A DNA stretch of 64,000 nt, from sequence record PQ416618.1. The stretch is one strand, 5' to 3'. The notes under the pieces are model-generated. The model worked only from the letters and a program-made list of their open reading frames with translations. It had not been told where the DNA came from and did not search any database. The first letter of the stretch is position 1; every line of letters begins with the position of its first letter. Positions 7,175 through 35,918 of the stretch are shown here, one piece after another. Source of the stretch: Escherichia phage vB_VIPECOMC06. Made by a program: the position numbers and the translations under genes.

Positions 7175-7214
7175 TATAATGTCATGGACGGTAAACTAAT
7201 TAAATGAGAGAAAT

Positions 7215-7850
7215 ATGAAAACTACTCCTATTACTATCGCTATTGACGCAATCATAAAACAAGCTTCTTCTTTGGCCGCTATGGCCAAAGTAATTAGTCA
7301 AAACCCTGCTCGTTATAATGCTATTCTAGAAACTCTTCGACGCCCAGGACTTAGTAATTATGAAAGCCGAGTAATTATTACAGGTGTTGGTAAGAATGCT
7401 AATATTGCAACTAAAGCTTCTGAGACATTTGCTTCACTCGGTATCCCGAGTATGTACTTGAACACAGGGCATTATTCTCATGGTGATGCAGGATTCATTG
7501 CGCCTAATGATGTGTTGATTCATATTAGTCGTTCTGGTAAAACTGAAGAAATGATAGGTGTGGCTAAGCATCTTAAAATGATTCGTCCGAACGTCAAACA
7601 GATTCTGTTGCATTGTAACCCTGACATTCCACAAGAATACGAAGCTCTTTTTGATTATACGTTCTGTACAGGCATCGCAGTAGAGGTTGATGAGAATTCT
7701 CTGGCTCCGACCATGTCCACTACATTGTTGTTAGCGCTTATCGATACGTTTGCTATCAACCTTTCGTCTGAACGTGGATTTACCTCTAATGACTTCCTTA
7801 AGTTCCACCCTGGCGGTGCACTAGGTGCCATGTTACGAGGCGAACAATGA
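7215..7850 (+). CDS. SIS-domain sugar-phosphate isomerase, KdsD/GutQ-like (putative arabinose-5-phosphate isomerase), no CBS domains
   Basis: 211 aa; VIITGVGKNANIATKASETFASLGIPSMY...HGDAG...HISRSGKTEE and C-terminal LAPTMSTT...FLKFHPGGALG resemble the KdsD SIS domain as I recall it. Confidence 0.75.
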   Translation: MKTTPITIAIDAIIKQASSLAAMAKVISQNPARYNAILETLRRPGLSNYESRVIITGVGKNANIATKASETFASLGIPSMYLNTGHYSHGDAGFIAPNDVLIHISRSGKTEEMIGVAKHLKMIRPNVKQILLHCNPDIPQEYEALFDYTFCTGIAVEVDENSLAPTMSTTLLLALIDTFAINLSSERGFTSNDFLKFHPGGALGAMLRGEQ

Positions 7851-7990
7851 AAGCAATAACAATAGGACTTTTACTATTGATGCTTGTCATGACTATCTAC
7901 TGGAGCTTAACGGCTCCAGTATTGATTCCAACACTTGTAATCGGATGGATTATGATTGGACTACAAGCAAAGTATGAATGCTTTAACTAG
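7847..7990 (+). CDS. Small hydrophobic membrane protein (47 aa), absent from the ORF track
   Basis: ATG overlaps the stop of the SIS gene (ATGA); sequence MKAITIGLLLLMLVMTIYWSLTAPVLIPTLVIGWIMIGLQAKYECFN predicts two TM helices. Confidence 0.35.
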   Translation: MKAITIGLLLLMLVMTIYWSLTAPVLIPTLVIGWIMIGLQAKYECFN

Positions 7991-8031
7991 AATAGTGTAC
8001 AATACACCTACTTACCAATGAGGACCACAAC

Positions 8032-9717
8032 ATGAAAAAAGCTGTTATTCTTGGTGCTGGATTGGCAACTCGTTTGTATCCAATAACGCATCATATTCCT
8101 AAGGTGCTTGTTAACTATAAACAAGACACTATTCTGAGCAATTTGTATACAATTTATTCTGACCTTGGCGCAGATGAAATTATTGTAGTAGTTCATTCAA
8201 AATTTGCTGAAACTGTTCGAGCTTATTGTGAGCAAGAAGGGTTCAATGTGACTATTCGTACAGTTGATGAAGCGTATGGTTCTGCTTATGCTCTTGCTAA
8301 ATTACACAAAGATTTAGACGGCCATAATGTAATTGTTAACTGGTGTGATATTATTCCTGATTTCGGTTCATGGTCTTGGAATGTTAACGCAATCTATGTT
8401 AAGGGTGACGAATGTCGATATAATTTCGACGGTGAAAATATCACTAACGTAGGTTCAACAGGTGGTAATGTTGTAGGAATTTATCAGTTCAAAGACTGGG
8501 AATTCTATATGGGTTCTACTGATGAGGAAATTCATGAATACTGCAAAGGACGTGATTTCGTAGAATTCCTTTACGGCAGCGCATTCAATAAATCAGAGCT
8601 TATGAATCTAATTGATTTAGGTGATATGCCTAAACTTGAAAAAGCTCATGAAGTTCGTGAACTTAATCGTAGTTTTAATGCAGTTGAAATTGGTGAAGAA
8701 ACTGTAACTAAATTCGCATTAACCGAACAGGGCCGAGCTCTTCAGAAAGATGAGATTTCATGGTATCTTAAAGTGAAATCAGATTCAGTTCCTCAGTTAG
8801 TTTCTGTTAATGAAAATAACTTTGAAATGGAACGCATTAAAGGTAAGCCGGCATTTGAATATATTAAATCCAAATCAAGTCTTGCTCGTCCACAAATTGT
8901 TGATGCAATTTTAGACGCACTGAAATTCAGCACAGACACTTATTTTGTAAGTCCTGAAACTGTTCGTCGTGATTTCACTAAAGAATTCTATACGAAAGTT
9001 ATTGATCGTTGTGAAAGTATTCAACCATTGATTGATTCATTTGGTAAAATCACACATGTAAACTACACTAAGATTGGGCGTCTGAAGCCAATGTTGAAAC
9101 AAGCTTTAGAACACCTTATTCGTTATCATAACCGTTCTCAGGGACAGTACTCTGTTATTCATGGTGACCCGAACTTCAGTAATACTATGATTACTGATAA
9201 CGGTGAAGTCAAGTTTATCGACCCTCGTGGATATTTTGGCGAAACCAAGATTTACGGGCCAAAATTGTATGATGAAGCTAAAGTGCTTTATGCTGTTTCA
9301 GGTTATGATGAATTCAACGCTAATCCGACCTGGGGGCAGTTTACTATTGATGAAACAACTTGTAATGTGACTATTAACATCAATCCATTAGTTTACAAAT
9401 ATGGAAAGATGAGTTCGTTTAACGAGTATCATCATTTGGCAGTGGCAATTATCTGGATTGCATTAGGTGGTTATTTCAAGAATAATCCACTTAAAGCGGT
9501 AGCCGCATATTATAAAGGTATGGAACTTCTGACTAAGCAATTACGTAACATGGGCCGTGTACTTCAGGACGGCTCTATTAGTTATGACGTAGCAGAACCT
9601 GTAACGGCTACTCTGATTACAAAAAATCCTGGTAAATGGGTACTAACTGATAAAGAAACTGGTGTTTCCTATCGTCCAATCGGTGGCGATATCACTCATC
9701 AATGGGAACGAATCTAA
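8032..9717 (+). CDS. Bifunctional sugar-1-phosphate nucleotidyltransferase (N-terminal) / APH-choline-kinase-fold sugar kinase (C-terminal)
   Basis: 561 aa; N-terminal KAVILGAGLATRLYP (GxGTRL nucleotidyltransferase motif); C-terminal Brenner motif HGDPNFSNTMI and DPRG of the APH/ChoK kinase fold; RBS gagga. Confidence 0.75.
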   Translation: MKKAVILGAGLATRLYPITHHIPKVLVNYKQDTILSNLYTIYSDLGADEIIVVVHSKFAETVRAYCEQEGFNVTIRTVDEAYGSAYALAKLHKDLDGHNVIVNWCDIIPDFGSWSWNVNAIYVKGDECRYNFDGENITNVGSTGGNVVGIYQFKDWEFYMGSTDEEIHEYCKGRDFVEFLYGSAFNKSELMNLIDLGDMPKLEKAHEVRELNRSFNAVEIGEETVTKFALTEQGRALQKDEISWYLKVKSDSVPQLVSVNENNFEMERIKGKPAFEYIKSKSSLARPQIVDAILDALKFSTDTYFVSPETVRRDFTKEFYTKVIDRCESIQPLIDSFGKITHVNYTKIGRLKPMLKQALEHLIRYHNRSQGQYSVIHGDPNFSNTMITDNGEVKFIDPRGYFGETKIYGPKLYDEAKVLYAVSGYDEFNANPTWGQFTIDETTCNVTININPLVYKYGKMSSFNEYHHLAVAIIWIALGGYFKNNPLKAVAAYYKGMELLTKQLRNMGRVLQDGSISYDVAEPVTATLITKNPGKWVLTDKETGVSYRPIGGDITHQWERI

Positions 9718-10103
9718 TGCACCGTGTAAAAAACATGCTTAATCTTTGTTTTGATGTCGATGATTGTATAACAGAGTGGAATAACAATCGTGATTACGTG
9801 AACTTCAAACCAGACGTCGAAATGGTATCTGCCATTAATGCTCTGTATGATGCAGGGCATACCATAACGCTTTACACTGCTCGCGGTATGAAGTCAGTCG
9901 GTCCTGGTCGTATAGCAATCGACATTCTCCCAAGTCTGATTCAGAACTTGGCAAACATTGGCTTGAAGTACCATAATTTGCTAACACATAAACCAGTATA
10001 TGATTGGATTATCGACGACAAAGCTATGCGTCCTGACGAATTCAAAGCTCTTATGAATAAAGGCGAATTCGAAACATTTAAATCATATAAACCGAATCTA
10101 TAA
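9717..10103 (+). CDS. Small HAD-superfamily phosphatase
   Basis: 128 aa from ATG 9717 (TAATG overlap with the upstream stop); HAD motif I FDVDDCIT, motif II LYTAR, motif III-IV K...DWIIDDK. Confidence 0.6.
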   Translation: MHRVKNMLNLCFDVDDCITEWNNNRDYVNFKPDVEMVSAINALYDAGHTITLYTARGMKSVGPGRIAIDILPSLIQNLANIGLKYHNLLTHKPVYDWIIDDKAMRPDEFKALMNKGEFETFKSYKPNL

Positions 10104-10157: not shown

Positions 10158-11318
10158 ATGAATACCTTTAAAATCGGAACGAATTTTGATTTAGCTCTTC
10201 TTGATAAAATCGTAGAGCTCAATAAAACTTATCCTAATAGCTTGATAAACGAAGTATACGGCTCTACAAGAGAAATGGCTTTTGTAGCAGCCAGACCTGA
10301 TTTTAGGCTTCCTGACGTTGACAAAAAGATGTTAGAAGATTACGTTAAACGTTGTAACGAATTAGGTATTTGCTTTAACTATACACTCAACACGATAAAT
10401 CCTGGTTCAAAAAGAGAACTAGTTGAGTGGAAGAAGAAAGCTATTCAGGATTATGTTCAGTATCTTTGGTCAATAGGCGTATGGCGTATTACTATCGCTA
10501 ACCCTGTTGTTATGGAAATTGTTCGTGAAGTCAATAAAGACATTGAGATTGAAGTTTCAACAATTCTACATGTCGATGCTGTAACTCAAATCAAATACTT
10601 GCATGACCAGTATAATATCAAAAAGGTCTGCTGTGGAATTCATAAGAACCGTTCAGTTTCTTTCCTGAAGCGTGCAGCAGAGTTTTGCAATAAGAACAAT
10701 ATAATATTTGAAGTTCTTGTAAATGAGTTCTGTTCTAATGCTGGTAAAGGGTATACAACACATTGTAGTTATCGTGACTCTTGCTATATTTTCCATAGCA
10801 CCGATGTTACAGTAGATGATGCCAAATCCTTAAATGGATATCCAATGCAACACTGCATTAAAGCTCGTGATACAGACCCATTTAACTGGTTGAGAACTCG
10901 TTTTGTTCGTCCTCAAGATTTGAAACTTTATAATGATATTGGTATCACTCAATTTAAAGTTTCTGGACGTACAGGTAGCACCGACTACATTTTGAAAGTT
11001 CTTGAAGCTTATGCTTCTGAAAAGTTTGAAGGTAATTTGTTAGAACTGTGGAAGCCTTTAGAGACTATTTTCACTCTTGAAAACGAAACTGAGTTTTCAC
11101 ATACGGTAAATATTGAAACCTCTTTGTTAGATGGCTTTTTAGAAAAAAGGTGGTTCAAACATCCAGATTTCGATTGTGCTAATGAAATCTGTGGGACGAC
11201 GTGTACATATTGTGAAAGATATTATAAACGTCAGTTATCTAAAAACGGGTTATCAGAAAATTCTATATCTATTATTGATATAACTAACTCTGATGACGCT
11301 TTGAGGTACCCAGAATGA
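10158..11318 (+). CDS. Cysteine-rich hypothetical protein (386 aa), function unknown
   Basis: ATG 10158; C-terminal Cx4Cx3Cx2C cluster (CANEICGTTCTYC) plus CCG and HCSYRDSC; embedded in the sugar locus. Confidence 0.5.
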   Translation: MNTFKIGTNFDLALLDKIVELNKTYPNSLINEVYGSTREMAFVAARPDFRLPDVDKKMLEDYVKRCNELGICFNYTLNTINPGSKRELVEWKKKAIQDYVQYLWSIGVWRITIANPVVMEIVREVNKDIEIEVSTILHVDAVTQIKYLHDQYNIKKVCCGIHKNRSVSFLKRAAEFCNKNNIIFEVLVNEFCSNAGKGYTTHCSYRDSCYIFHSTDVTVDDAKSLNGYPMQHCIKARDTDPFNWLRTRFVRPQDLKLYNDIGITQFKVSGRTGSTDYILKVLEAYASEKFEGNLLELWKPLETIFTLENETEFSHTVNIETSLLDGFLEKRWFKHPDFDCANEICGTTCTYCERYYKRQLSKNGLSENSISIIDITNSDDALRYPE

Positions 11319-11550
11319 TTTCTAGAAAAACTTTTAACCACCAACTTAATGAAGAGATTTTGACTATTAAAATTAACAGCAACGAACAAATTCTTAAACA
11401 GGCCCATAAGGGCCTGTTTGAAACTAAAGCGGCTAAAGTGATTAAAGAACCTAACTAGAATACTACGCTGATGCATTTCTTCATAGTGTTCTTGGAAGTA
11501 TCGATGCCGAAGCTTTACGTTATATCAACATCGCTAAGAAATTCAAATAA

Positions 11551-11591: not shown

Positions 11592-12308
11592 ATGGGAAAA
11601 CATAACACAATGAAATATATTAAAGCCGCAGATTTTCAATCCGCATTTAAAGCAGTCAATCGTGAAATTTTAGAAAACCCGGAATTCGTAACTGATTCTC
11701 GTATTGGACGTTGTAATGAAATTGGGTCTATGACAGTAGTTGTTGACACTCCATCTTCATTCAAAATGACCGATCCACGTATTAACCGCATCTCTTATGA
11801 ATATGCTGAAGATTTCTGGAAGTTTATGATTTCTGGTGGTACTGATGCAGAAGAAGCATTTAAGGCATATCCTAACGTTGCTAAATTTATTTCTAAACCT
11901 AAATCAGACGCTTTGCCTGCAAACTTCAACACTTTCTATGGTCCACGAATTGCGGCCCAGTTACCAGCTCTTTTAAAAGAACTTAAAGAGAAACCTAACT
12001 CCCGAAGAGTTGTGTTCCAAATTCTTGAAAGTTCAGATCAGGCTTTGCTTGATTCAGACGAAACACTTGAATATCCATGTACTGACTCAGTGACTTATTA
12101 TATTCGTGATGGTAAGCTTTATACCCACTGTCATATGCGTTCACAGAACTGTGCTGTTGTTATGCAGTTGGATTTTTATCTCCAAGGAAAATTACTTCAT
12201 TATATCGCTAAAGAATGTGGTGTAGAAGTTGGTGATTATACTCATACCATGGTAAGTGCCCATGTGTTTGAACGTGATTTTGATTATGTTAAAGGATTCC
12301 TTGACTAA
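11592..12308 (+). CDS. 42: dCMP hydroxymethylase (thymidylate-synthase fold), gp42-like
   Basis: 238 aa; TS-family features (SRR motif, catalytic Cys in EYPCTD); distinct from the canonical td at 59116; position matches T4 gene 42. Confidence 0.7.
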   Translation: MGKHNTMKYIKAADFQSAFKAVNREILENPEFVTDSRIGRCNEIGSMTVVVDTPSSFKMTDPRINRISYEYAEDFWKFMISGGTDAEEAFKAYPNVAKFISKPKSDALPANFNTFYGPRIAAQLPALLKELKEKPNSRRVVFQILESSDQALLDSDETLEYPCTDSVTYYIRDGKLYTHCHMRSQNCAVVMQLDFYLQGKLLHYIAKECGVEVGDYTHTMVSAHVFERDFDYVKGFLD

Positions 12309-13207
12309 TGGCTATTTTCCGCGTACCTATCTTGAGTATGCGGTCTTATGAAACTGGACAGTATGCTATCCTTAAGGATGGCAACTTCCAACTTCATTTG
12401 CACCGTGCTAATCCAGGTGATGTGATTACATATCCACGTAATGCATCTGATATTAAAGAATGCGAACGTCTTTTCCCAGAATTTAAGTTTGTTCCATTAT
12501 GGTATAAAGATAACGCGTATAACACTCGTAAATATTTCTGGTCTGAAAATGAATTTGTGGTTGATTCATTAATTGATTATTATGATTGTGATTTTCTAAT
12601 CACAGATATCACTGGATATGACGGCGCTTTTGATGTGGAATTCAATTTCAATATCACTGCAGACCCTAATAAACCACGTTTTTATATTGACGAATTCTTA
12701 AAAACCGACATGTTGTCTGTTAATCGTTCACTTCAAACTACTGTGTTGAATGAACGTCAAAAAGAAGTGCTGGTTAACGCAGGTGCAGATGGTAATAAGA
12801 TTATCGTAACCCAGAAAGTTATACGTCCTTCCATCATGCAGCGTCTTGTAGGTGATTTGGCTCCTATTCATCTAGATGGTATTTTTCATCCATTTCGAAT
12901 TAGTGACCCATGCTATCGTTTTGAACAAGTGGTTGAATGCGCAATTCAATTAGGCCAACCGCTTTATATAACCGATCCAAATAATAGCTTCGACAGAAAT
13001 AAGTATCCTGAAGAAGCGCTGATTCGAATTTTTAATCCAACTAAAACTGAGTACTATCAAATTCTTAAAGGACGTCCGAAGATTCAATATTTCGAAAATC
13101 CTGAAGAAGTATTCCATCCAGGTCTTGGTGAGTTCATCTACTTTAATGCTTTAATTTCTTCGCCGTATAATATACCTAAATATGAAGATGTCGTAATCGA
13201 GGAATAA
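12308..13207 (+). CDS. Hypothetical protein (299 aa) occupying the T4 beta-gt position
   Basis: TAATG-coupled to gene 42; no motif I can assign. Confidence 0.5.
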   Translation: MAIFRVPILSMRSYETGQYAILKDGNFQLHLHRANPGDVITYPRNASDIKECERLFPEFKFVPLWYKDNAYNTRKYFWSENEFVVDSLIDYYDCDFLITDITGYDGAFDVEFNFNITADPNKPRFYIDEFLKTDMLSVNRSLQTTVLNERQKEVLVNAGADGNKIIVTQKVIRPSIMQRLVGDLAPIHLDGIFHPFRISDPCYRFEQVVECAIQLGQPLYITDPNNSFDRNKYPEEALIRIFNPTKTEYYQILKGRPKIQYFENPEEVFHPGLGEFIYFNALISSPYNIPKYEDVVIEE

Positions 13208-13208
13208 A

Positions 13209-13757
13209 ATGGCTAAAATTATTTTAGTAGATGGCCCGGATAATGCCGGTAAAACAACTTTCATTAATGACATAATGGAAATTAGTGAAAGATATGTAAA
13301 GATTGATTTCCCTAAACGAACAGTTGATGGACGTTTCGATGTTAAGTCTCGAAATGAAGTTGGCTGTTTCGAAACGATGTTGAATTATTTAGACCCTACT
13401 AAGATTTATCTGTTAGACCGTGGATATATTAGTAACTGGGTTTATGGACGTATTCGACAAGATGCGGACTCGGTTCTTGACGTTTATGAACAGGATTATG
13501 TTCGTCTTTGCCAAAACCATGATGTGTTCACAATTATTTTAACACGTAACGAAATGACTGAAAGTTTTGAAGACGACCTTATTACTTTGTCTTCATTCGG
13601 TTTTAATACAGTCATTTCATATTTTGAAGAGTTTGCAATTCATAACAAAATTCAAACGTATCAATTACTTAATCATGATGGTGCTAACAAAGTTATAGGA
13701 TTTAATGCAAGCGAACGTAATAATTTGATTACAGAAATTATCAAATGGGCTCGTTAA
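13209..13757 (+). CDS. P-loop nucleotide/nucleoside-monophosphate kinase-like protein
   Basis: 182 aa; Walker A GPDNAGKTT near the N-terminus; translationally coupled to the upstream ORF. Confidence 0.5.
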   Translation: MAKIILVDGPDNAGKTTFINDIMEISERYVKIDFPKRTVDGRFDVKSRNEVGCFETMLNYLDPTKIYLLDRGYISNWVYGRIRQDADSVLDVYEQDYVRLCQNHDVFTIILTRNEMTESFEDDLITLSSFGFNTVISYFEEFAIHNKIQTYQLLNHDGANKVIGFNASERNNLITEIIKWAR

Positions 13758-30438: not shown

Positions 30439-32256
30439 ATGATTAAAAATGAAATTAAGGTATTGTCAGATGTAGAACATATTAAGAAACGCAGTGGCAT
30501 GTATATTGGTTCTTCGGCCAAAGAAGCCCACGAGCGTTTTTTGTTTGGTAAATATCAACAAGTTGAATATGTTCCTGGTCTGGTTAAATTAATCGATGAG
30601 ATTATTGACAACTCGGTTGATGAAGCTATTCGTACATCATTTAAGTTTGCAAATAAAATCGATGTGCAAATTAAAAATAATCAAGTTTCGGTGGAAGATA
30701 ACGGACGTGGTATTCCTCAAGGTTTAGTTACTGACCAAACAGGTGAACAAATTCCTGGGCCTGTAGCAGCCTGGACTATTCCAAAGGCTGGCGGCAACTT
30801 TGGCGATGACTCTGAACGCAAGACTGGTGGTATGAACGGCGTCGGGAGTAGTTTAACTAATATCTTCTCTACGTTGTTTACAGGCATCACGTCAGATGGC
30901 GAAAATGAAATCACCGTTAACTGTTCAAACGGAATGGAAAACAAATCATGGTCTTCTAAGAAATCTAAAGGTAAAGGCACTAAAGTAATCTTCACTCCTG
31001 ATTTCTCTTCATTTGAAGAACATAATTTATCTCAAATTTATTTAGATATTACTTTAGACCGACTTCAAACGTTGGCAGTCGTTTATCCTGATATCAAGTT
31101 CACATTTAATGGTAAAAAGGTTGATGGTAATTTTAAACGATTTGCTAAACAATTTGGCGAAGATAACATCATTCAAGAAAATGATAAAGTCTCTATAGCA
31201 TTCACAACATCACCAGACGGCTTCCGTCATTTAACTTATGTGAATAACATCCATACTAAAAATGGCGGTCATCATGTTGAATGTGTAATGGATGATATCT
31301 GCGAACATCTTTTGCCGGGTATTAAAAAGAAATATAAGGGTATTGAAGTCACTAAAGCTCGTGTTAAAGAATGCCTCACAATGTTGATGTTTATTAGAGA
31401 CATGAGCAACATGCGTTTTGATTCTCAGACTAAAGAACGTTTAACGTCAACGTATGGTGATATTCGTAATCATATCCAATTAGATGCTAAGAAAATTGCT
31501 CAGGCACTTCTTAAAAACGAAGCCTTGATTATGCCTATTGTTGAAGCAGCATTAGCTCGTAAATTGGCAGCAGAAAAGGCTGCAGAAACTAAAGCAGCTA
31601 AAAAGGCAACTAAAGCTAAGGTTCATAAGCATATTAAAGCTAACCAATGCGGTAAAGATGCAGATACGACATTGTTCTTAACAGAAGGTGATTCAGCAAT
31701 TGGTTATCTCATTGATGTTCGTGACCGTGAACTACACGGCGGATTCCCATTACGTGGTAAGGTGATGAATAGCTGGGGTATGTCATATGCTGATATGATG
31801 AAGAACAAAGAGCTCTTTGATATCTGTGCTATCACAGGTCTTATTCTTGGTGAAAAGGCAGAGAATACAAACTATCGTAATATTGCAATTATGACCGATG
31901 CCGATCATGACGGTCTTGGAAGTATTTATCCGGCTTTGCTTGCTTTCTTTAGTAATTGGCCTGAATTGTTTGAACAAGGACGTATTCGCTTTGTTAAAAC
32001 TCCTGTAATTATTGCACAAATTGGCAAAACTCAAAAATGGTTTTATACTGTAGCTGAGTATGAAGAAGCTAAAGATACACTGCCTAAGCATAGTATTCGA
32101 TACATCAAGGGATTGGGCTCCCTTGAAAAGTCAGAATATCGTGAAATGATTCAGAACCCTGTGTACGACGTAGTTAAACTTCCTGAAAATTGGAAAGAAC
32201 TCTTTGAAATGTTGTTGGGTGATGATTCAGAACTTCGTAAAGAATGGATGTCCTAA
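30439..32256 (+). CDS. 39: Topoisomerase II large subunit gp39, unsplit form (GyrB-like GHKL ATPase plus TOPRIM)
   Basis: 605 aa; GHKL motif EDNGRGIP, TOPRIM LTEGDSAIG; continuous through the region that is a separate gene 60 in T4. Confidence 0.9.
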   Translation: MIKNEIKVLSDVEHIKKRSGMYIGSSAKEAHERFLFGKYQQVEYVPGLVKLIDEIIDNSVDEAIRTSFKFANKIDVQIKNNQVSVEDNGRGIPQGLVTDQTGEQIPGPVAAWTIPKAGGNFGDDSERKTGGMNGVGSSLTNIFSTLFTGITSDGENEITVNCSNGMENKSWSSKKSKGKGTKVIFTPDFSSFEEHNLSQIYLDITLDRLQTLAVVYPDIKFTFNGKKVDGNFKRFAKQFGEDNIIQENDKVSIAFTTSPDGFRHLTYVNNIHTKNGGHHVECVMDDICEHLLPGIKKKYKGIEVTKARVKECLTMLMFIRDMSNMRFDSQTKERLTSTYGDIRNHIQLDAKKIAQALLKNEALIMPIVEAALARKLAAEKAAETKAAKKATKAKVHKHIKANQCGKDADTTLFLTEGDSAIGYLIDVRDRELHGGFPLRGKVMNSWGMSYADMMKNKELFDICAITGLILGEKAENTNYRNIAIMTDADHDGLGSIYPALLAFFSNWPELFEQGRIRFVKTPVIIAQIGKTQKWFYTVAEYEEAKDTLPKHSIRYIKGLGSLEKSEYREMIQNPVYDVVKLPENWKELFEMLLGDDSELRKEWMS

Positions 32257-32278
32257 GCTCCTTCTGGAGCTTCATTTT
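32257..32278 (+). terminator. Hairpin plus U-rich tail after gene 39 (gctccTTCTggagc, ttcatttt)
   Basis: 5-bp stem directly after the gp39 stop with a T-rich tail. Confidence 0.5.
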
Positions 32279-32298
32279 AATTTTAATAAGGCTTAATT

Positions 32299-33399
32299 AT
32301 GAAAGTTATGTTTATCCCATCTCGTGCAGTCCCATTTAATCCTGACCGTGTACAAGGTGGTCTTGAAGCAGTACATTTAAATGTGTTGAAATATCTTGTG
32401 TCCATCGGTGCTGATATTGATTATATCGGCTTTGATAATGACACGTTTGGTGACTGGAAAGTTACACACCATCCTGTTGGTCATCTGACTAAATTTAGCC
32501 TAGGTATGAGTTATACTATGGCTCGTAAGATTGTTGAACTAGCCGGCATTCATGAATACGATTTTGTTGTTACTATGGAACCGACTAAACTAACCGTTCA
32601 GGCAATTAAAGACGCAGGTCTCTCTAAAGTTCATAAGAATTTTATGGCAACACCATTTGAACCGGTATCTCGTGGCATTGTTCAAATTTGGGACCAGACT
32701 ATTCAAATTCATAAGAATGGCGGCAAGAGTTATGCTCCTACTAAAGCCTTCCGTGAATTTGAACGTAAATATTGTTATATGACTTCAGGTCTGACTGACA
32801 AAATTGATTATGATTATTGGCGAGCAAATCCGTTGTTTGAAGCCGAAGATTATCCGGTTATTTGTTTGAATGAGAAACCTGAAGTTCTTCCGGCGACTGA
32901 TCTGATTATTAGTGCACAACGTTATGACACTAAAATGCGTCGTACTGATGTTGCTCTTGAAGCGATTAAAGCACTAGGCGAAAATGGTGTAGGATACTGT
33001 CCTAGTAAATGGGCACCACCAGCTAAATATCCTGTTATTATTGATGCTCCACACAGTGAAATCATGGAACGTCTTAAAACAGCTAAAGCGCTTATTAATA
33101 CATGTCCTGACACAGGTACGGTAGAGAATAGTTCTATTGAAGCCATCTCTAAAGGTGTCCCTGTAATCCAGTTAGTTTTTAAGGATTATCCTCATGCGAC
33201 ATTCGAATACGACCCAGATACTGTGCGTGTAGAAATTGATTCCTCTACTCCTAAGAAAGAAGTAGTTGCGCTTTACACAAAAGCTGTATTAGAATTCACT
33301 GACACATACGAAGCTCGAGTTAAACGTGCTGAAGCAGTATGGAAGAAGTATAACCGAGATGCAGTTGTTGCGATGTGGGATAAAATCTTCACAGCGTAA
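32299..33399 (+). CDS. GT-B fold glycosyltransferase (GT4-like); candidate DNA hydroxymethylcytosine glycosyl/arabinosyltransferase
   Basis: 366 aa; C-terminal GT4-like E-x7-E motif with G-x-P-V-I (VENSSIEAISKGVPVIQ); N-terminal MKVMFIP...GG.E typical of a GT-B N-domain; not recognisably T4 alpha-gt or beta-gt. Confidence 0.65.
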   Translation: MKVMFIPSRAVPFNPDRVQGGLEAVHLNVLKYLVSIGADIDYIGFDNDTFGDWKVTHHPVGHLTKFSLGMSYTMARKIVELAGIHEYDFVVTMEPTKLTVQAIKDAGLSKVHKNFMATPFEPVSRGIVQIWDQTIQIHKNGGKSYAPTKAFREFERKYCYMTSGLTDKIDYDYWRANPLFEAEDYPVICLNEKPEVLPATDLIISAQRYDTKMRRTDVALEAIKALGENGVGYCPSKWAPPAKYPVIIDAPHSEIMERLKTAKALINTCPDTGTVENSSIEAISKGVPVIQLVFKDYPHATFEYDPDTVRVEIDSSTPKKEVVALYTKAVLEFTDTYEARVKRAEAVWKKYNRDAVVAMWDKIFTA

Positions 33400-33491
33400 A
33401 TCCTGAATTGCCTGGGGCACTATTACACATAAGATGATAGATTATATGGTCTTTAGTAATAGTGCCCTAGGAATCTACTGAAGAGAATATT

Positions 33492-33692
33492 ATGAGAACA
33501 TATAACGTGGACTTGGAACTTTTTGATAAAGCAGTGCTCCGGGAATTCCGGCTTATCCAAAGATTTTTTGATATCGAGTCAGCAGAGTTCTTTAAAGAAC
33601 GCTTTAAAGAAATTCGATATAAAATACAAACCGATACAGCTACTAAAGAAGAACTTCTTGAAGTAGCAGAAATTTTTAAACGTAACTTGTGA
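33492..33692 (+). CDS. Small protein in the rIIA.1 position (66 aa)
   Basis: ATG with RBS gaagaga; immediately upstream of rIIA. Confidence 0.4.
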   Translation: MRTYNVDLELFDKAVLREFRLIQRFFDIESAEFFKERFKEIRYKIQTDTATKEELLEVAEIFKRNL

Positions 33693-33704
33693 TGAGAGAA
33701 AAAT

Positions 33705-35918
33705 ATGATTATTGAAACGGCTAAAGAAACGATTATTGGTTCAGGTGGTAAGAGCACAGCATTTACTATTCAAGGCAATAGCAAAGTTTATAAGATTTTG
33801 TCTAATGACCTTTATACAAACAAAGAATTGGCTTGTGTACGTGAATTAATCACAAACTGTATCGATGGTCAAATTCTTAATGGTTGCACTGATAAGTTTA
33901 TTGTTCAGGCTCCAGGTCGTTTAGACCCACGTTTTGTAGTTCGAGACTTTGGTCCTGGTATGAGTGATTTCACCATTCGAGGTAATGACGAAGAGCCAGG
34001 AATCTATAACTCATATTTTGCTTCAACTAAAACATCGAGTAACGATTTCATTGGTGGATTCGGACTCGGCTCTAAAGCTCCACTAGCATATACCGATACG
34101 TTTAACCTTACGTCTTATCACAATGGTGAAGTTCGTGGTTATGTAATTTATCAAGATGACACAGGTCCACAGATTAAGCCAACCTTCGTAGATAAGATGG
34201 GTCCTGATGATCGGACCGGCGTTGAAGTAGTTGTGCCTGTTAACCCAGAAGATTTTGAAAAGTTCGCATCTGAAATTGCATATGTTATGCGTCCTCTCGG
34301 TGATATTGCAGAAGTTCGTGGTGTTAAAGATATCAAATACTTCCCGGAATTCGATGATGTTTATTTAGCCAAGGAAGCTCCATGGGGTGAACGTGGTAAT
34401 ATCATGGCTGTTTATGGTGGTATTGTATATCCAATCGGAAGTGTTATTAAAGAACAAACATGGATGATGACGCGATGCACTACAGCTTATATTAAATTCC
34501 CTATGGGTGAACTAGATGTAGCCCCGTCTCGTGAAGCATTGTCATTTGATAAACGTACAGTAGCAAATATCCATAAACGCGTTGCAGAAATCGATGCTAA
34601 ATTGTTCGCTGAAGATTCTAAGAAATGGATTGATTGTAAATACCCACGTCATGTGTTCCGTGAAATTGATTCTCTTGGCTATACCGCTCGCAAATACATG
34701 GAAAAGGCTGGGTCTAATATTGAATCACTGAAATACTCTAAAGAACAACTAACTTATTCCGAGTTGTACAAACGTTTTAAAATGGGACCTGAGTGGTGTA
34801 ATCTTGGCGTCGTATACGATATCGTTGAATCCCCTCGTCTTCGTCGTATTCGTGAAAGCGGTAGCTCAACGGCAACCATTTCAATTAACAGTCTGATTGG
34901 CATTAACATTAAAAATGTTGAAATTGTTATTGACGACGTTAAGGGACGCGTTCCATTAATGCGAGCTCTTAATTCAATTGAAATGTCTAAAGACGAGGTT
35001 AAATTAACCGGTAAAGTTCCACGCGGTTTTGGTAAAAGCGTACTATTCGTTGACCCTACAGACGAAGATGCAATGAAACTTCTGGAACGCCTTAAAGTTA
35101 TCTTTGATGGCGACAACATTAACATGTACAAGACTTCAGAGCTTTTACAAATCGTTAAGCCATGGATTGAAGTCAAGAAACGGACTAATGAGCCTCGTCC
35201 TAAATCCCCGAGTGCTCATCGATTCTTTAAGAATGAAAACGATGTTTGGGTATCAGAAGACCTCTTTATTCCGGCAAGTGAAGCAGATGAAATCCAAGGT
35301 TATGCTATAGTTCGTAATCGTTCTAATGCTGAATGTCTTGACGCAGATAAAGGTTGGTTGAACTATGACTCCAATTTCTTGACTCGTATTGCTGATTTGT
35401 CAGGTATTAAAGAGTTCACTGTAGTCCGTCCACAGATTGCTAAGAAAGTTCGTAAACTTGGTGAAGTAGAATGCTTGTTCGAAAAATCAATTAATGACTA
35501 TATTACGCTAATTGATAAAGTGGATTATGATGAGTATGTATCACCAAGTCGTAGAGCACAGCCTTATTTGAATCATATTACTCGTAATGAAGAGCTTAAC
35601 TTCCTTAGTAAATATTTTAGCTCTAAGAACAAAGAAATCAGTAAAGATTTTGCAAAACTTTCAACAGTAAATAATCGTTGGGGTTGGAATCGATTCTCAG
35701 GTGCTACTAACAGAGATCTGAATAAGAAGTTAGAATTGTGTGCTAAAATTTTCGATAAGCTTAAAGATAATGCTTACGATAATGATGATAAAATGGTTAT
35801 TGAATTTGAAACCAATTATCATATTGTGTCAGAATACATGGGACGACGTGGTACTCTTTCTAAAGAACAGGTCGCTCAAATCGTTAAATTCATGAAGGCC
35901 GTGGAAGCGGCCAAATAA
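33705..35918 (+). CDS. rIIA: rIIA protein
   Basis: 737 aa; N-terminus MIIETAKETIIGSGGKS...RELITNCID...RDFGPGMS (GHKL-like) matches T4 rIIA; followed by rIIB. Confidence 0.9.
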   Translation: MIIETAKETIIGSGGKSTAFTIQGNSKVYKILSNDLYTNKELACVRELITNCIDGQILNGCTDKFIVQAPGRLDPRFVVRDFGPGMSDFTIRGNDEEPGIYNSYFASTKTSSNDFIGGFGLGSKAPLAYTDTFNLTSYHNGEVRGYVIYQDDTGPQIKPTFVDKMGPDDRTGVEVVVPVNPEDFEKFASEIAYVMRPLGDIAEVRGVKDIKYFPEFDDVYLAKEAPWGERGNIMAVYGGIVYPIGSVIKEQTWMMTRCTTAYIKFPMGELDVAPSREALSFDKRTVANIHKRVAEIDAKLFAEDSKKWIDCKYPRHVFREIDSLGYTARKYMEKAGSNIESLKYSKEQLTYSELYKRFKMGPEWCNLGVVYDIVESPRLRRIRESGSSTATISINSLIGINIKNVEIVIDDVKGRVPLMRALNSIEMSKDEVKLTGKVPRGFGKSVLFVDPTDEDAMKLLERLKVIFDGDNINMYKTSELLQIVKPWIEVKKRTNEPRPKSPSAHRFFKNENDVWVSEDLFIPASEADEIQGYAIVRNRSNAECLDADKGWLNYDSNFLTRIADLSGIKEFTVVRPQIAKKVRKLGEVECLFEKSINDYITLIDKVDYDEYVSPSRRAQPYLNHITRNEELNFLSKYFSSKNKEISKDFAKLSTVNNRWGWNRFSGATNRDLNKKLELCAKIFDKLKDNAYDNDDKMVIEFETNYHIVSEYMGRRGTLSKEQVAQIVKFMKAVEAAK

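Follow-up and report, generated by a model that had tools for sequence, protein, structure and literature searches.

A probable second-sugar DNA arabinosyltransferase of the RB69 type next to rIIA.1 in Escherichia phage vB_VIPECOMC06

Sugar hypermodification of cytosine is one of the main routes by which T-even-like phages withstand restriction enzymes, CRISPR-Cas and DNA glycosylases. How many sugars are attached alters which defences still act, and this bears on the choice of therapeutic phages. In the closest described system, phage RB69, Thomas et al. read the modification in 2018 as ara-hmC and nominated ORF003c (PMC6024577). Using MS/MS and NMR, Lee et al. (2026) instead found RB69 DNA to carry beta-D-Araf-(1-3)-alpha-D-Araf, attached to 5-hydroxycytosine (5hoC) through an ether at C5, together with a mono-arabinosyl form and with no methylene bridge; they also demonstrated experimentally that gp48, a thymidylate-synthase (TS) homolog, makes 5-hydroxy-dCMP (5hodCMP), and they designated gp3 'beta-arabinosyltransferase 2' and gp46:47 'arabinosyltransferase 1' (PMC13326640). 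An independent study of the Mosigvirus NP reported 5-ara-dC and 5-ara-ara-dC at about 1:4 (PMC13390438), and phage LC53 carries a single arabinose per cytosine (bioRxiv 10.64898/2025.12.19.695335). In vitro, gp76 plus gp77 of the Acinetobacter phage DLP3, supplied with UDP-Araf, lengthen the arabinose chain of RB69 virion DNA to three sugars, and gp79, gp77 and gp76 are each inactive alone on 5hoC DNA (PMC13326640).

Here we describe a 366-aa protein (GT366) encoded in a 64,000-nucleotide stretch of Escherichia phage vB_VIPECOMC06 (PQ416618.1), which we refer to as the window. The protein is already known: it was predicted in 2018 as RB69 ORF003c (PMC6024577), crystallised in 2025 and named 'arabinosyltransferase 2' in 2025-2026. 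For the window the outcome is a corrected annotation, none of which is new to the field, in which the base is 5hoC, the 299-aa protein GT299 is the likely initiating transferase and GT366 is the probable chain-extending one. Coordinates of all features are collected in Table 1.

Table 1. Features of the GT366 locus and of the sugar-nucleotide cassette in the window
Feature	Coordinates	Strand	Description
SIS-domain arabinose-5-phosphate isomerase (RB69 gp55 ortholog)	7215..7850	+	Pfam SIS E 1.7e-10; 99.1% identical to RB69 gp55
Bifunctional sugar kinase/UDP-arabinose pyrophosphorylase (RB69 gp52:53, AfhE-like)	8032..9717	+	Intact, 561 aa; Pfam NTP_transferase E 8.5e-10, weak kinase-family matches; function from PMC13326640
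HAD-like arabinose-1,5-bisphosphate 5-phosphatase (RB69 gp51, AfhF-like)	9702..10103	+	98.4% identical to RB69 gp51; no Pfam match; function from PMC13326640
U32-family protein (RB69 gp50 ortholog)	10158..11318	+	Pfam Peptidase_U32 E 6e-11; 99.2% identical to RB69 gp50
TS238, TS-family 5-hydroxy-dCMP synthase (RB69 gp48 ortholog)	11592..12308	+	Makes acceptor hydroxyl; Pfam Thymidylat_synt E 1.8e-15; 99.2% identical to RB69 gp48
GT299, compact GT-B protein (RB69 gp46:47 ortholog)	12308..13207	+	Intact here, 299 aa; proposed first, base-proximal (alpha) arabinosyltransferase
Thymidylate-kinase-like nucleotide kinase (RB69 gp45 ortholog)	13209..13757	+	98.4% identical to RB69 gp45; no Pfam match; function from PMC13326640
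Gene 39, fused topoisomerase II large subunit	30439..32256	+	605 aa; left flank of GT366 insertion slot
GT366, probable UDP-arabinofuranose-dependent GT-B DNA arabinosyltransferase (RB69 ORF003c/gp3 ortholog)	32299..33399	+	ATG start, 366 aa; proposed second-sugar transferase (beta-1,3 Araf-on-Araf)
Very stable hairpin	33411..33471	+	Spacer between GT366 and rIIA.1; 16-bp perfect stem, -35.1 kcal/mol, z -5.8
rIIA.1 homolog	33492..33692	+	66 aa; right flank of GT366 insertion slot
rIIA	33705..35918	+	Follows rIIA.1; rIIB comes next

Locus, family and fold of GT366

The ORF had first been picked out in a sequence-only reading of the window, and it is a genuine gene, with a full-length match to PHROG 8302, homologs in 211 phage records and a solved structure 99% identical to its product. 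Megablast of positions 30439-35918 returned 141 near-full-length matches (90-98% identity), every one from RB69-like Escherichia or Shigella Mosigvirus phages, and the window phage is itself an RB69-like Mosigvirus. The gene does lie between gene 39 and rIIA, as that reading had placed it. The slot had also been equated with the 39/60 junction of T4, a loose description: the equivalent place in T4 is the 54 bp that separate gene 60 from rIIA.1, and the T4 39/60 split with 60.1/mobA maps to the interior of the window's single fused gene 39. An Rfam search of the hairpin between GT366 and rIIA.1 gave no match, and promoter and terminator scans of the GT366 surroundings performed no better than chance.

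PHROG 8302 ('unknown function') was the only family-library match of GT366 (E 1.2e-222; positions 1-366 of 366). Searches against Pfam, with the GT4 families Glycos_transf_1 and Glyco_trans_4 included, returned zero matches at E ≤ 10, and searches against NCBIfam returned zero matches at E ≤ 1. The family is tiny, comprising 5 clusters (90%) in 5.8 billion proteins and 11 representatives (50%) in 1.84 billion. In one GenBank record the protein is annotated as a phosphatidylinositol mannosyltransferase.

A GT366-family profile searched against the PDB (E ≤ 10) gave a single sequence match (E 9e-197), to the 'phage HY126 glycosyltransferase' of entries 9IQZ (apo) and 9IR0 (with UDP), released 2025-07-16. 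The HY126 protein is 99% identical to GT366 over its full length and differs by few substitutions (e.g., Y160H, G164A and S315F, taken from the alignment). A near-identical protein thus has an experimental GT-B fold and binds UDP, the latter as given by the 9IR0 entry title ('with UDP'). Two Rossmann-like beta/alpha/beta domains with an inter-domain cleft are present, and the GT-B glycosyltransferase call of the sequence-only reading was right; its accompanying assignment to GT4 found no HMM counterpart, with Pfam and NCBIfam both empty. An AF2 model of GT366 was of low confidence (pLDDT: 58.7) because, the family being tiny, its alignment held only six sequences; the non-self Foldseek matches of this low-confidence model were BshA, PimA and MshA at E~1e-8, plus some GT1 members.

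The N-terminus reads MKVMFIP...GGLEAV exactly as had been quoted, with GGLEAV at residues 20-25. At the other end, the peptide VENSSIEAISKGVPVIQ (residues 275-291) had been offered as a hallmark E-x7-E motif, which is absent from the C-terminal domain: the peptide reads E276-x4-E281, and the sole literal E-x7-E of the protein spans residues 86-94, in the N-terminal half. Residues invariant across 17 family members include R208, R214, E281, G286 and E303, and G20, D88, E94, E276 and H299 are near-invariant; the position eight residues before E281 is occupied by Gly. Thomas et al. (2018) had aligned Glu-281 and Arg-207 of ORF003c to Glu-311 and Arg-204 of T4 alpha-GT (PMC6024577).

The modified base and the sugar-nucleotide cassette

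The rest of the pathway, at 7.2-13.8 kb, is complete and intact in the window, with parts 98-99% identical to their RB69 counterparts; the 561-aa kinase/pyrophosphorylase has 72% identity to its LC53 homolog and 59% to that of DLP3. TS238 is nearly identical to the HY126 structures 9IQC/9IR2/9IQU and merely 25-28% identical to T4 gp42. Aligned without gaps from DGKL with a segment of E. coli ThyA, its RSQN...D motif places an Asn at ThyA-D169 and an Asp at N177 (D169N and N177D equivalents). According to Lee et al. (2026), Asn at the D169 position is the signature of a 5hodCMP synthase (PMC13326640). TS238 is the sole TS-family gene near the cassette and is of this type, and a search of the window for a gp42-type hydroxymethylase found none above 25-28% identity to T4 gp42. 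Given that TS238 shares 99.2% identity with the validated RB69 gp48, and given the modification found in RB69 DNA, the acceptor base in Mosigvirus is 5hoC and not hmC. The sequence-only reading had named hmC, which the Asn signature and the published RB69 and NP chemistry overturn, and it had coupled GT366 to the pentose-nucleotide cassette and to phage DNA, which we judge correct.

The U32-family protein of the cassette keeps ≥82% identity throughout 221 records of enterobacterial and Shewanella phages. Acinetobacter phages, whose hosts are strict aerobes, lack it. Its gene adjoins a chorismate mutase gene in LC53 and in at least one Klebsiella phage. The U32 proteins TrhP, RlhA and UbiU/V are prephenate-dependent, O2-independent hydroxylases leading to 5-hydroxyuridine, 5-hydroxycytidine and ubiquinone (PMC6599085, PMC10990095); the TS-homolog route requires O2. 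A 2026 NAR paper labels the phage protein just 'sugar or heterocycle reductase', with no mention of U32 or prephenate.

Distribution, sugar number and order of transfer

Across 50,697 phage records, GT366 homologs were present in 211, comprising 155 Mosigvirus (≥95% identity), 55 Acinetobacter phages (~42%, two copies each) plus a single Tegunavirus-labelled record; divergent metagenomic members used as queries recovered the same record set. The location of the gene varies, being next to rIIA.1 in Mosigvirus, inside the ara-5hoC cassette and duplicated in Acinetobacter phages, and, in an unrelated metagenomic phage, within a block of structural genes. All isolated phages with a family member also carry that cassette. 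GT299 homologs were more widespread (348 of the 50,697 records), always with a TS homolog adjacent, and their hosts were Escherichia, Shigella, Klebsiella, Enterobacter, Serratia, Yersinia, Proteus, Pectobacterium, Edwardsiella, Shewanella and Acinetobacter. GT299 itself has a confident GT-B fold, and no homolog of it was found in the PDB.

Sugar numbers taken from the literature were set beside these gene counts. LC53, with one arabinose, has every cassette gene (GT299: 60% identical) and no GT366 match, and its topoisomerase/rIIA.1 interval holds just two tiny ORFs; Thanatos likewise has one arabinose and zero GT366-family copies. RB69 has two arabinoses and one copy, which was directly checked, and Bas46, Bas47 and NP have two arabinoses and one copy assumed from genus membership, Bas46 and Bas47 (BASEL collection) being presumably Mosigvirus. 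DLP3 has three arabinoses and two copies (gp76 and gp77). Copy numbers of 0, 1 and 2 thus track 1, 2 and 3 arabinoses per cytosine, and with these literature counts GT366 was confined to phages bearing two or more arabinoses, each time with the cassette present.

The two DLP3 paralogs are closer to each other (57% identity) than to the Mosigvirus protein (41-45%), and a neighbour-joining tree groups them. This clustering points to a duplication within the Acinetobacter-phage lineage, with GT366 co-orthologous to both copies, and therefore argues against any one-to-one transfer of function to GT366. A one-to-one orthology between GT366 and DLP3 gp77, as implied in the literature, was rejected on the same clustering.

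Because phages with GT299 but without GT366 still carry one arabinose, and because GT366 copies track sugar number, GT366 is likely the second transferase. Our preferred reading, in which we have good confidence, is that GT366 is the accessory DNA arabinosyltransferase of Mosigvirus (RB69 gp3, HY126 9IQZ) and places a second arabinose onto the first on 5hoC DNA. Chain extension by DLP3 gp76 plus gp77 is the only biochemical result for the family. Counting against this reading, the fold neighbours of GT366 are mostly retaining GT4 enzymes, yet the proposed product linkage is beta. GT299 is the better candidate for the base-proximal sugar, a putative role given that its homolog DLP3 gp79 was inactive alone on 5hoC DNA. 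The sequence-only reading had GT366 transferring the sugar to the modified cytosine, with the 299-aa ORF as a possible second transferase. A DNA arabinosyltransferase it would be, and the 299-aa protein does have a GT-B fold, but the phyletic pattern points to the reverse order, GT299 fitting the first sugar and GT366 a later one.

The pathway may be pictured as follows. The SIS isomerase, the bifunctional kinase/pyrophosphorylase and the HAD phosphatase of the cassette would convert ribulose-5-P to UDP-D-arabinofuranose, and the TS homolog (flavin- and O2-dependent), followed by kinases, would turn dCMP into 5-hydroxy-dCMP, such that 5hoC would replace cytosine. GT299 would then put the first alpha-D-Araf on O5 of the base. 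The C-terminal Rossmann domain of GT366, where the family-invariant R208, R214, E281, G286 and E303 lie, is predicted to bind UDP-Araf, with E281 and R208/R214 presumably holding the UDP moiety as in other GT-B enzymes. GT366 would add the second D-Araf in beta-(1-3) linkage to the first sugar on polymeric DNA, and the product would be the di-arabinosyl-5-hydroxycytosine that accounts for most modified cytosines in Mosigvirus. The extra sugar probably also guards against defences to which mono-arabinosylated DNA is still recognisable. For GT366 itself, the mono-to-di step, the beta-(1-3) linkage and the counter-defence role are inferred.

GT366 is probably the arabinosyltransferase Aat of phage Bas46, which we take to be the same gene from genus membership and from the definition of Aat reportedly given by Mahler et al., an enzyme adding further arabinoses. 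Bas46 with Aat deleted is viable but becomes sensitive to a plasmid-borne defence system, as described in a passage of PMC13216743 that cites Mahler 2025.

One alternative is that GT366 is the initiating transferase, placing the first arabinose directly on 5hoC, with GT299 performing another task or extending the chain. GT366 is after all a UDP-binding GT-B enzyme, it is the protein that the HY126 group crystallised while the PDB is without a GT299 homolog, and initiating activity was not reconstituted with DLP3 gp79 (PMC13326640). Against these points stand the phages that do without it: LC53, Thanatos and many more of the 348 cassette-bearing records have no GT366, yet their cytosines are arabinosylated. 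The stepwise match of copy number and sugar number, the action of gp76 and gp77 on DNA that is already arabinosylated, and the constant place of GT299, with its confident fold, beside the 5hodCMP synthase all speak for the opposite order, and we regard an initiating role for GT366 as unlikely. The older proposal of 2018, repeated in the sequence-only reading, makes GT366 an arabinosyl-hmC transferase acting on hmC-DNA and goes back to the original RB69 study, which read ara-hmC and nominated ORF003c (PMC6024577). It is refuted by published chemistry, in which the ether link to 5hoC leaves no methylene bridge and the NP study independently agrees (PMC13390438); with TS238 carrying the Asn signature at 99.2% identity to a validated 5hodCMP synthase, and no gp42-type hydroxymethylase in the window closer than 25% identity, we give it practically no credence.

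The target might also lie outside DNA, GT366 glycosylating a host lipid, LPS, a cell-wall precursor or a protein and merely co-occurring with the DNA pathway. Its closest folds (PimA, BshA, MshA and LPS transferases), the mannosyltransferase annotation in GenBank and the metagenomic member within a structural-gene block are all in keeping with such a role. Every isolated phage with GT366 nevertheless has the ara-5hoC cassette, the Acinetobacter copies lie inside it, and the paralogs modify DNA in vitro, which makes a non-DNA target very improbable.

We retain GT366 as the probable second-sugar transferase. Going further, and only tentatively, it could be an inverting beta-(1-3)-D-arabinofuranosyltransferase on a GT4-like scaffold that has lost E-x7-E, with a sugar on DNA as its acceptor, and such an enzyme would open a new CAZy family; GT366 might also be a portable 'glycan-extension' module, perhaps acquired against defences that recognise mono-arabinosylated DNA.

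Comparison with known systems

The nearest relative is RB69 ORF003c/gp3 (RB69p003, NP_861693.1), which shares 363 of 366 residues with GT366 (99.2%), sits in the same gene 39/rIIA.1 interval and is accompanied by the same cassette; only three substitutions set the two apart. DLP3 gp76 and gp77 belong to the same family over their full length (41% and 45% identity, respectively) but are two paralogs that lie inside the cassette and not beside rIIA, and both together are needed for the third sugar, whereas Mosigvirus has one copy and ends at two sugars.

The T4 alpha-GT (GT72) and beta-GT (GT63) are likewise post-replicative, UDP-sugar-dependent GT-B enzymes acting on the modified cytosine of T-even DNA, and the secondary glucosyltransferase of T2/T6, which forms gentiobiosyl-hmC, is a functional analogue in adding a second sugar to a first. 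These T-even glucosyltransferases differ from GT366 in sugar (glucose versus D-arabinofuranose), in base (hmC versus 5hoC) and in locus, and they have no detectable sequence similarity to it. Compared with T4 alpha-GT and beta-GT (NC_000866), GT366 gave BLASTP E > 7 and hhalign probabilities of 0.3% and 0.15%, in agreement with the sequence-only reading, which had recognised no similarity to either; a search of the window for other homologs of the two T4 enzymes found none.

The best non-self fold matches, PimA, BshA and MshA, are retaining GT-B enzymes of the GT4 type. They have in common with GT366 the C-terminal nucleotide-binding turn E-A-[IM]-S-x-G-x-P-V-[IL] and the N-terminal Gly-Gly loop. 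GT366 differs from them in its low identity (~12%), in having no Pfam GT4 match and in carrying E-x4-E and not E-x7-E, as well as in its probable acceptor, a DNA-borne sugar, and in the beta anomer proposed for its product.

GT366 relatives and the downstream hairpin

Relatives of GT366, the 366-aa GT-B DNA arabinosyltransferase encoded between gene 39 and rIIA.1, were compared across phage genomes and metagenomic contigs. In Shigella phage JK45 (MK962757.1 / NC_054940.1; 2523-4123), the GT366 match falls into two pieces that are spread over 1.6 kb, compared with 1.1 kb for the gene itself, and are annotated as two "hypothetical protein" features; this arrangement suggests that the JK45 gene was interrupted by an insertion or partly duplicated internally. 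The metagenomic family member P0009 is encoded in a structural/packaging block with gp13-like, DUF4815 and terminase genes, on a phage whose gene order differs, and the GT366 module is therefore not bound to a single genomic neighborhood. One record labelled "Tegunavirus" in the phages collection carries a GT366 homolog with <60% identity; Yersinia phage TG1 has no GT366 homolog.

The spacer downstream of GT366 contains a perfect 16-bp inverted repeat that encloses an inner mini-hairpin. Its predicted RNA fold has a free energy of -35.1 kcal/mol (z = -5.8 against shuffled sequences), no U-tract follows it, and an Rfam search with the hairpin returned no match. The hairpin could be a transcript-stabilizing or processing element, or a scar from insertion of the GT366 gene.

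Coordinates of the features described in this part
Feature	Location	Strand	Remarks
Peptidase_U32-family protein, RB69 gp50 ortholog	window 10158-11318	+	within ara-5hoC cassette
LC53 counterpart region of the U32-family protein	L003 (LC53 locus) 7182-8692
Homolog of RB69 ORF049c	window 11315-11547	+	disrupted
Inverted repeat / hairpin	window 33411-33471	+	in 92-nt spacer, GT366 stop codon to rIIA.1
P0009, GT366-family member	L006 (contig SRR34261890_53613) 10001-11140		39% identity

Reading frames split or disrupted relative to RB69

ORF046c/047c and ORF052c/053c of the RB69 reference are split forms of window genes 12308-13207 and 8032-9717, each of which is a single intact ORF here (299 and 561 aa, respectively). 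Because the same genes are single and intact in the window, their sequences support the published attribution of the RB69 splits to sequencing errors. ORF049c encodes 79 aa in RB69; the window copy is disrupted by a 4-bp deletion that leaves a 47-aa ORF with the rest out of frame. The chorismate mutase found at the equivalent position in LC53 is not related to it.

The U32-family protein of the cassette

Based on its distribution, its chorismate mutase neighbor and the chemistry of known U32 hydroxylases, the U32-family protein may complement the TS homolog, which requires O2 and flavin, by providing an anaerobic path to 5-hydroxycytosine, a route not discussed in the NAR 2026 paper. Across 221 enterobacterial and Shewanella phage records, the protein is conserved at ≥82% identity. 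Phages of Acinetobacter, whose members are strict aerobes, lack it, as do approximately 40 Escherichia phages having GT299, the proposed first arabinosyltransferase. Both LC53 and Klebsiella phage KLB31 carry, next to the U32-family gene, a gene for chorismate mutase, the enzyme that forms prephenate. The known U32 hydroxylases TrhP, RlhA and UbiU/V are prephenate-dependent and O2-independent, with ho5U, ho5C and ubiquinone as their products (PMC6599085, PMC10990095).
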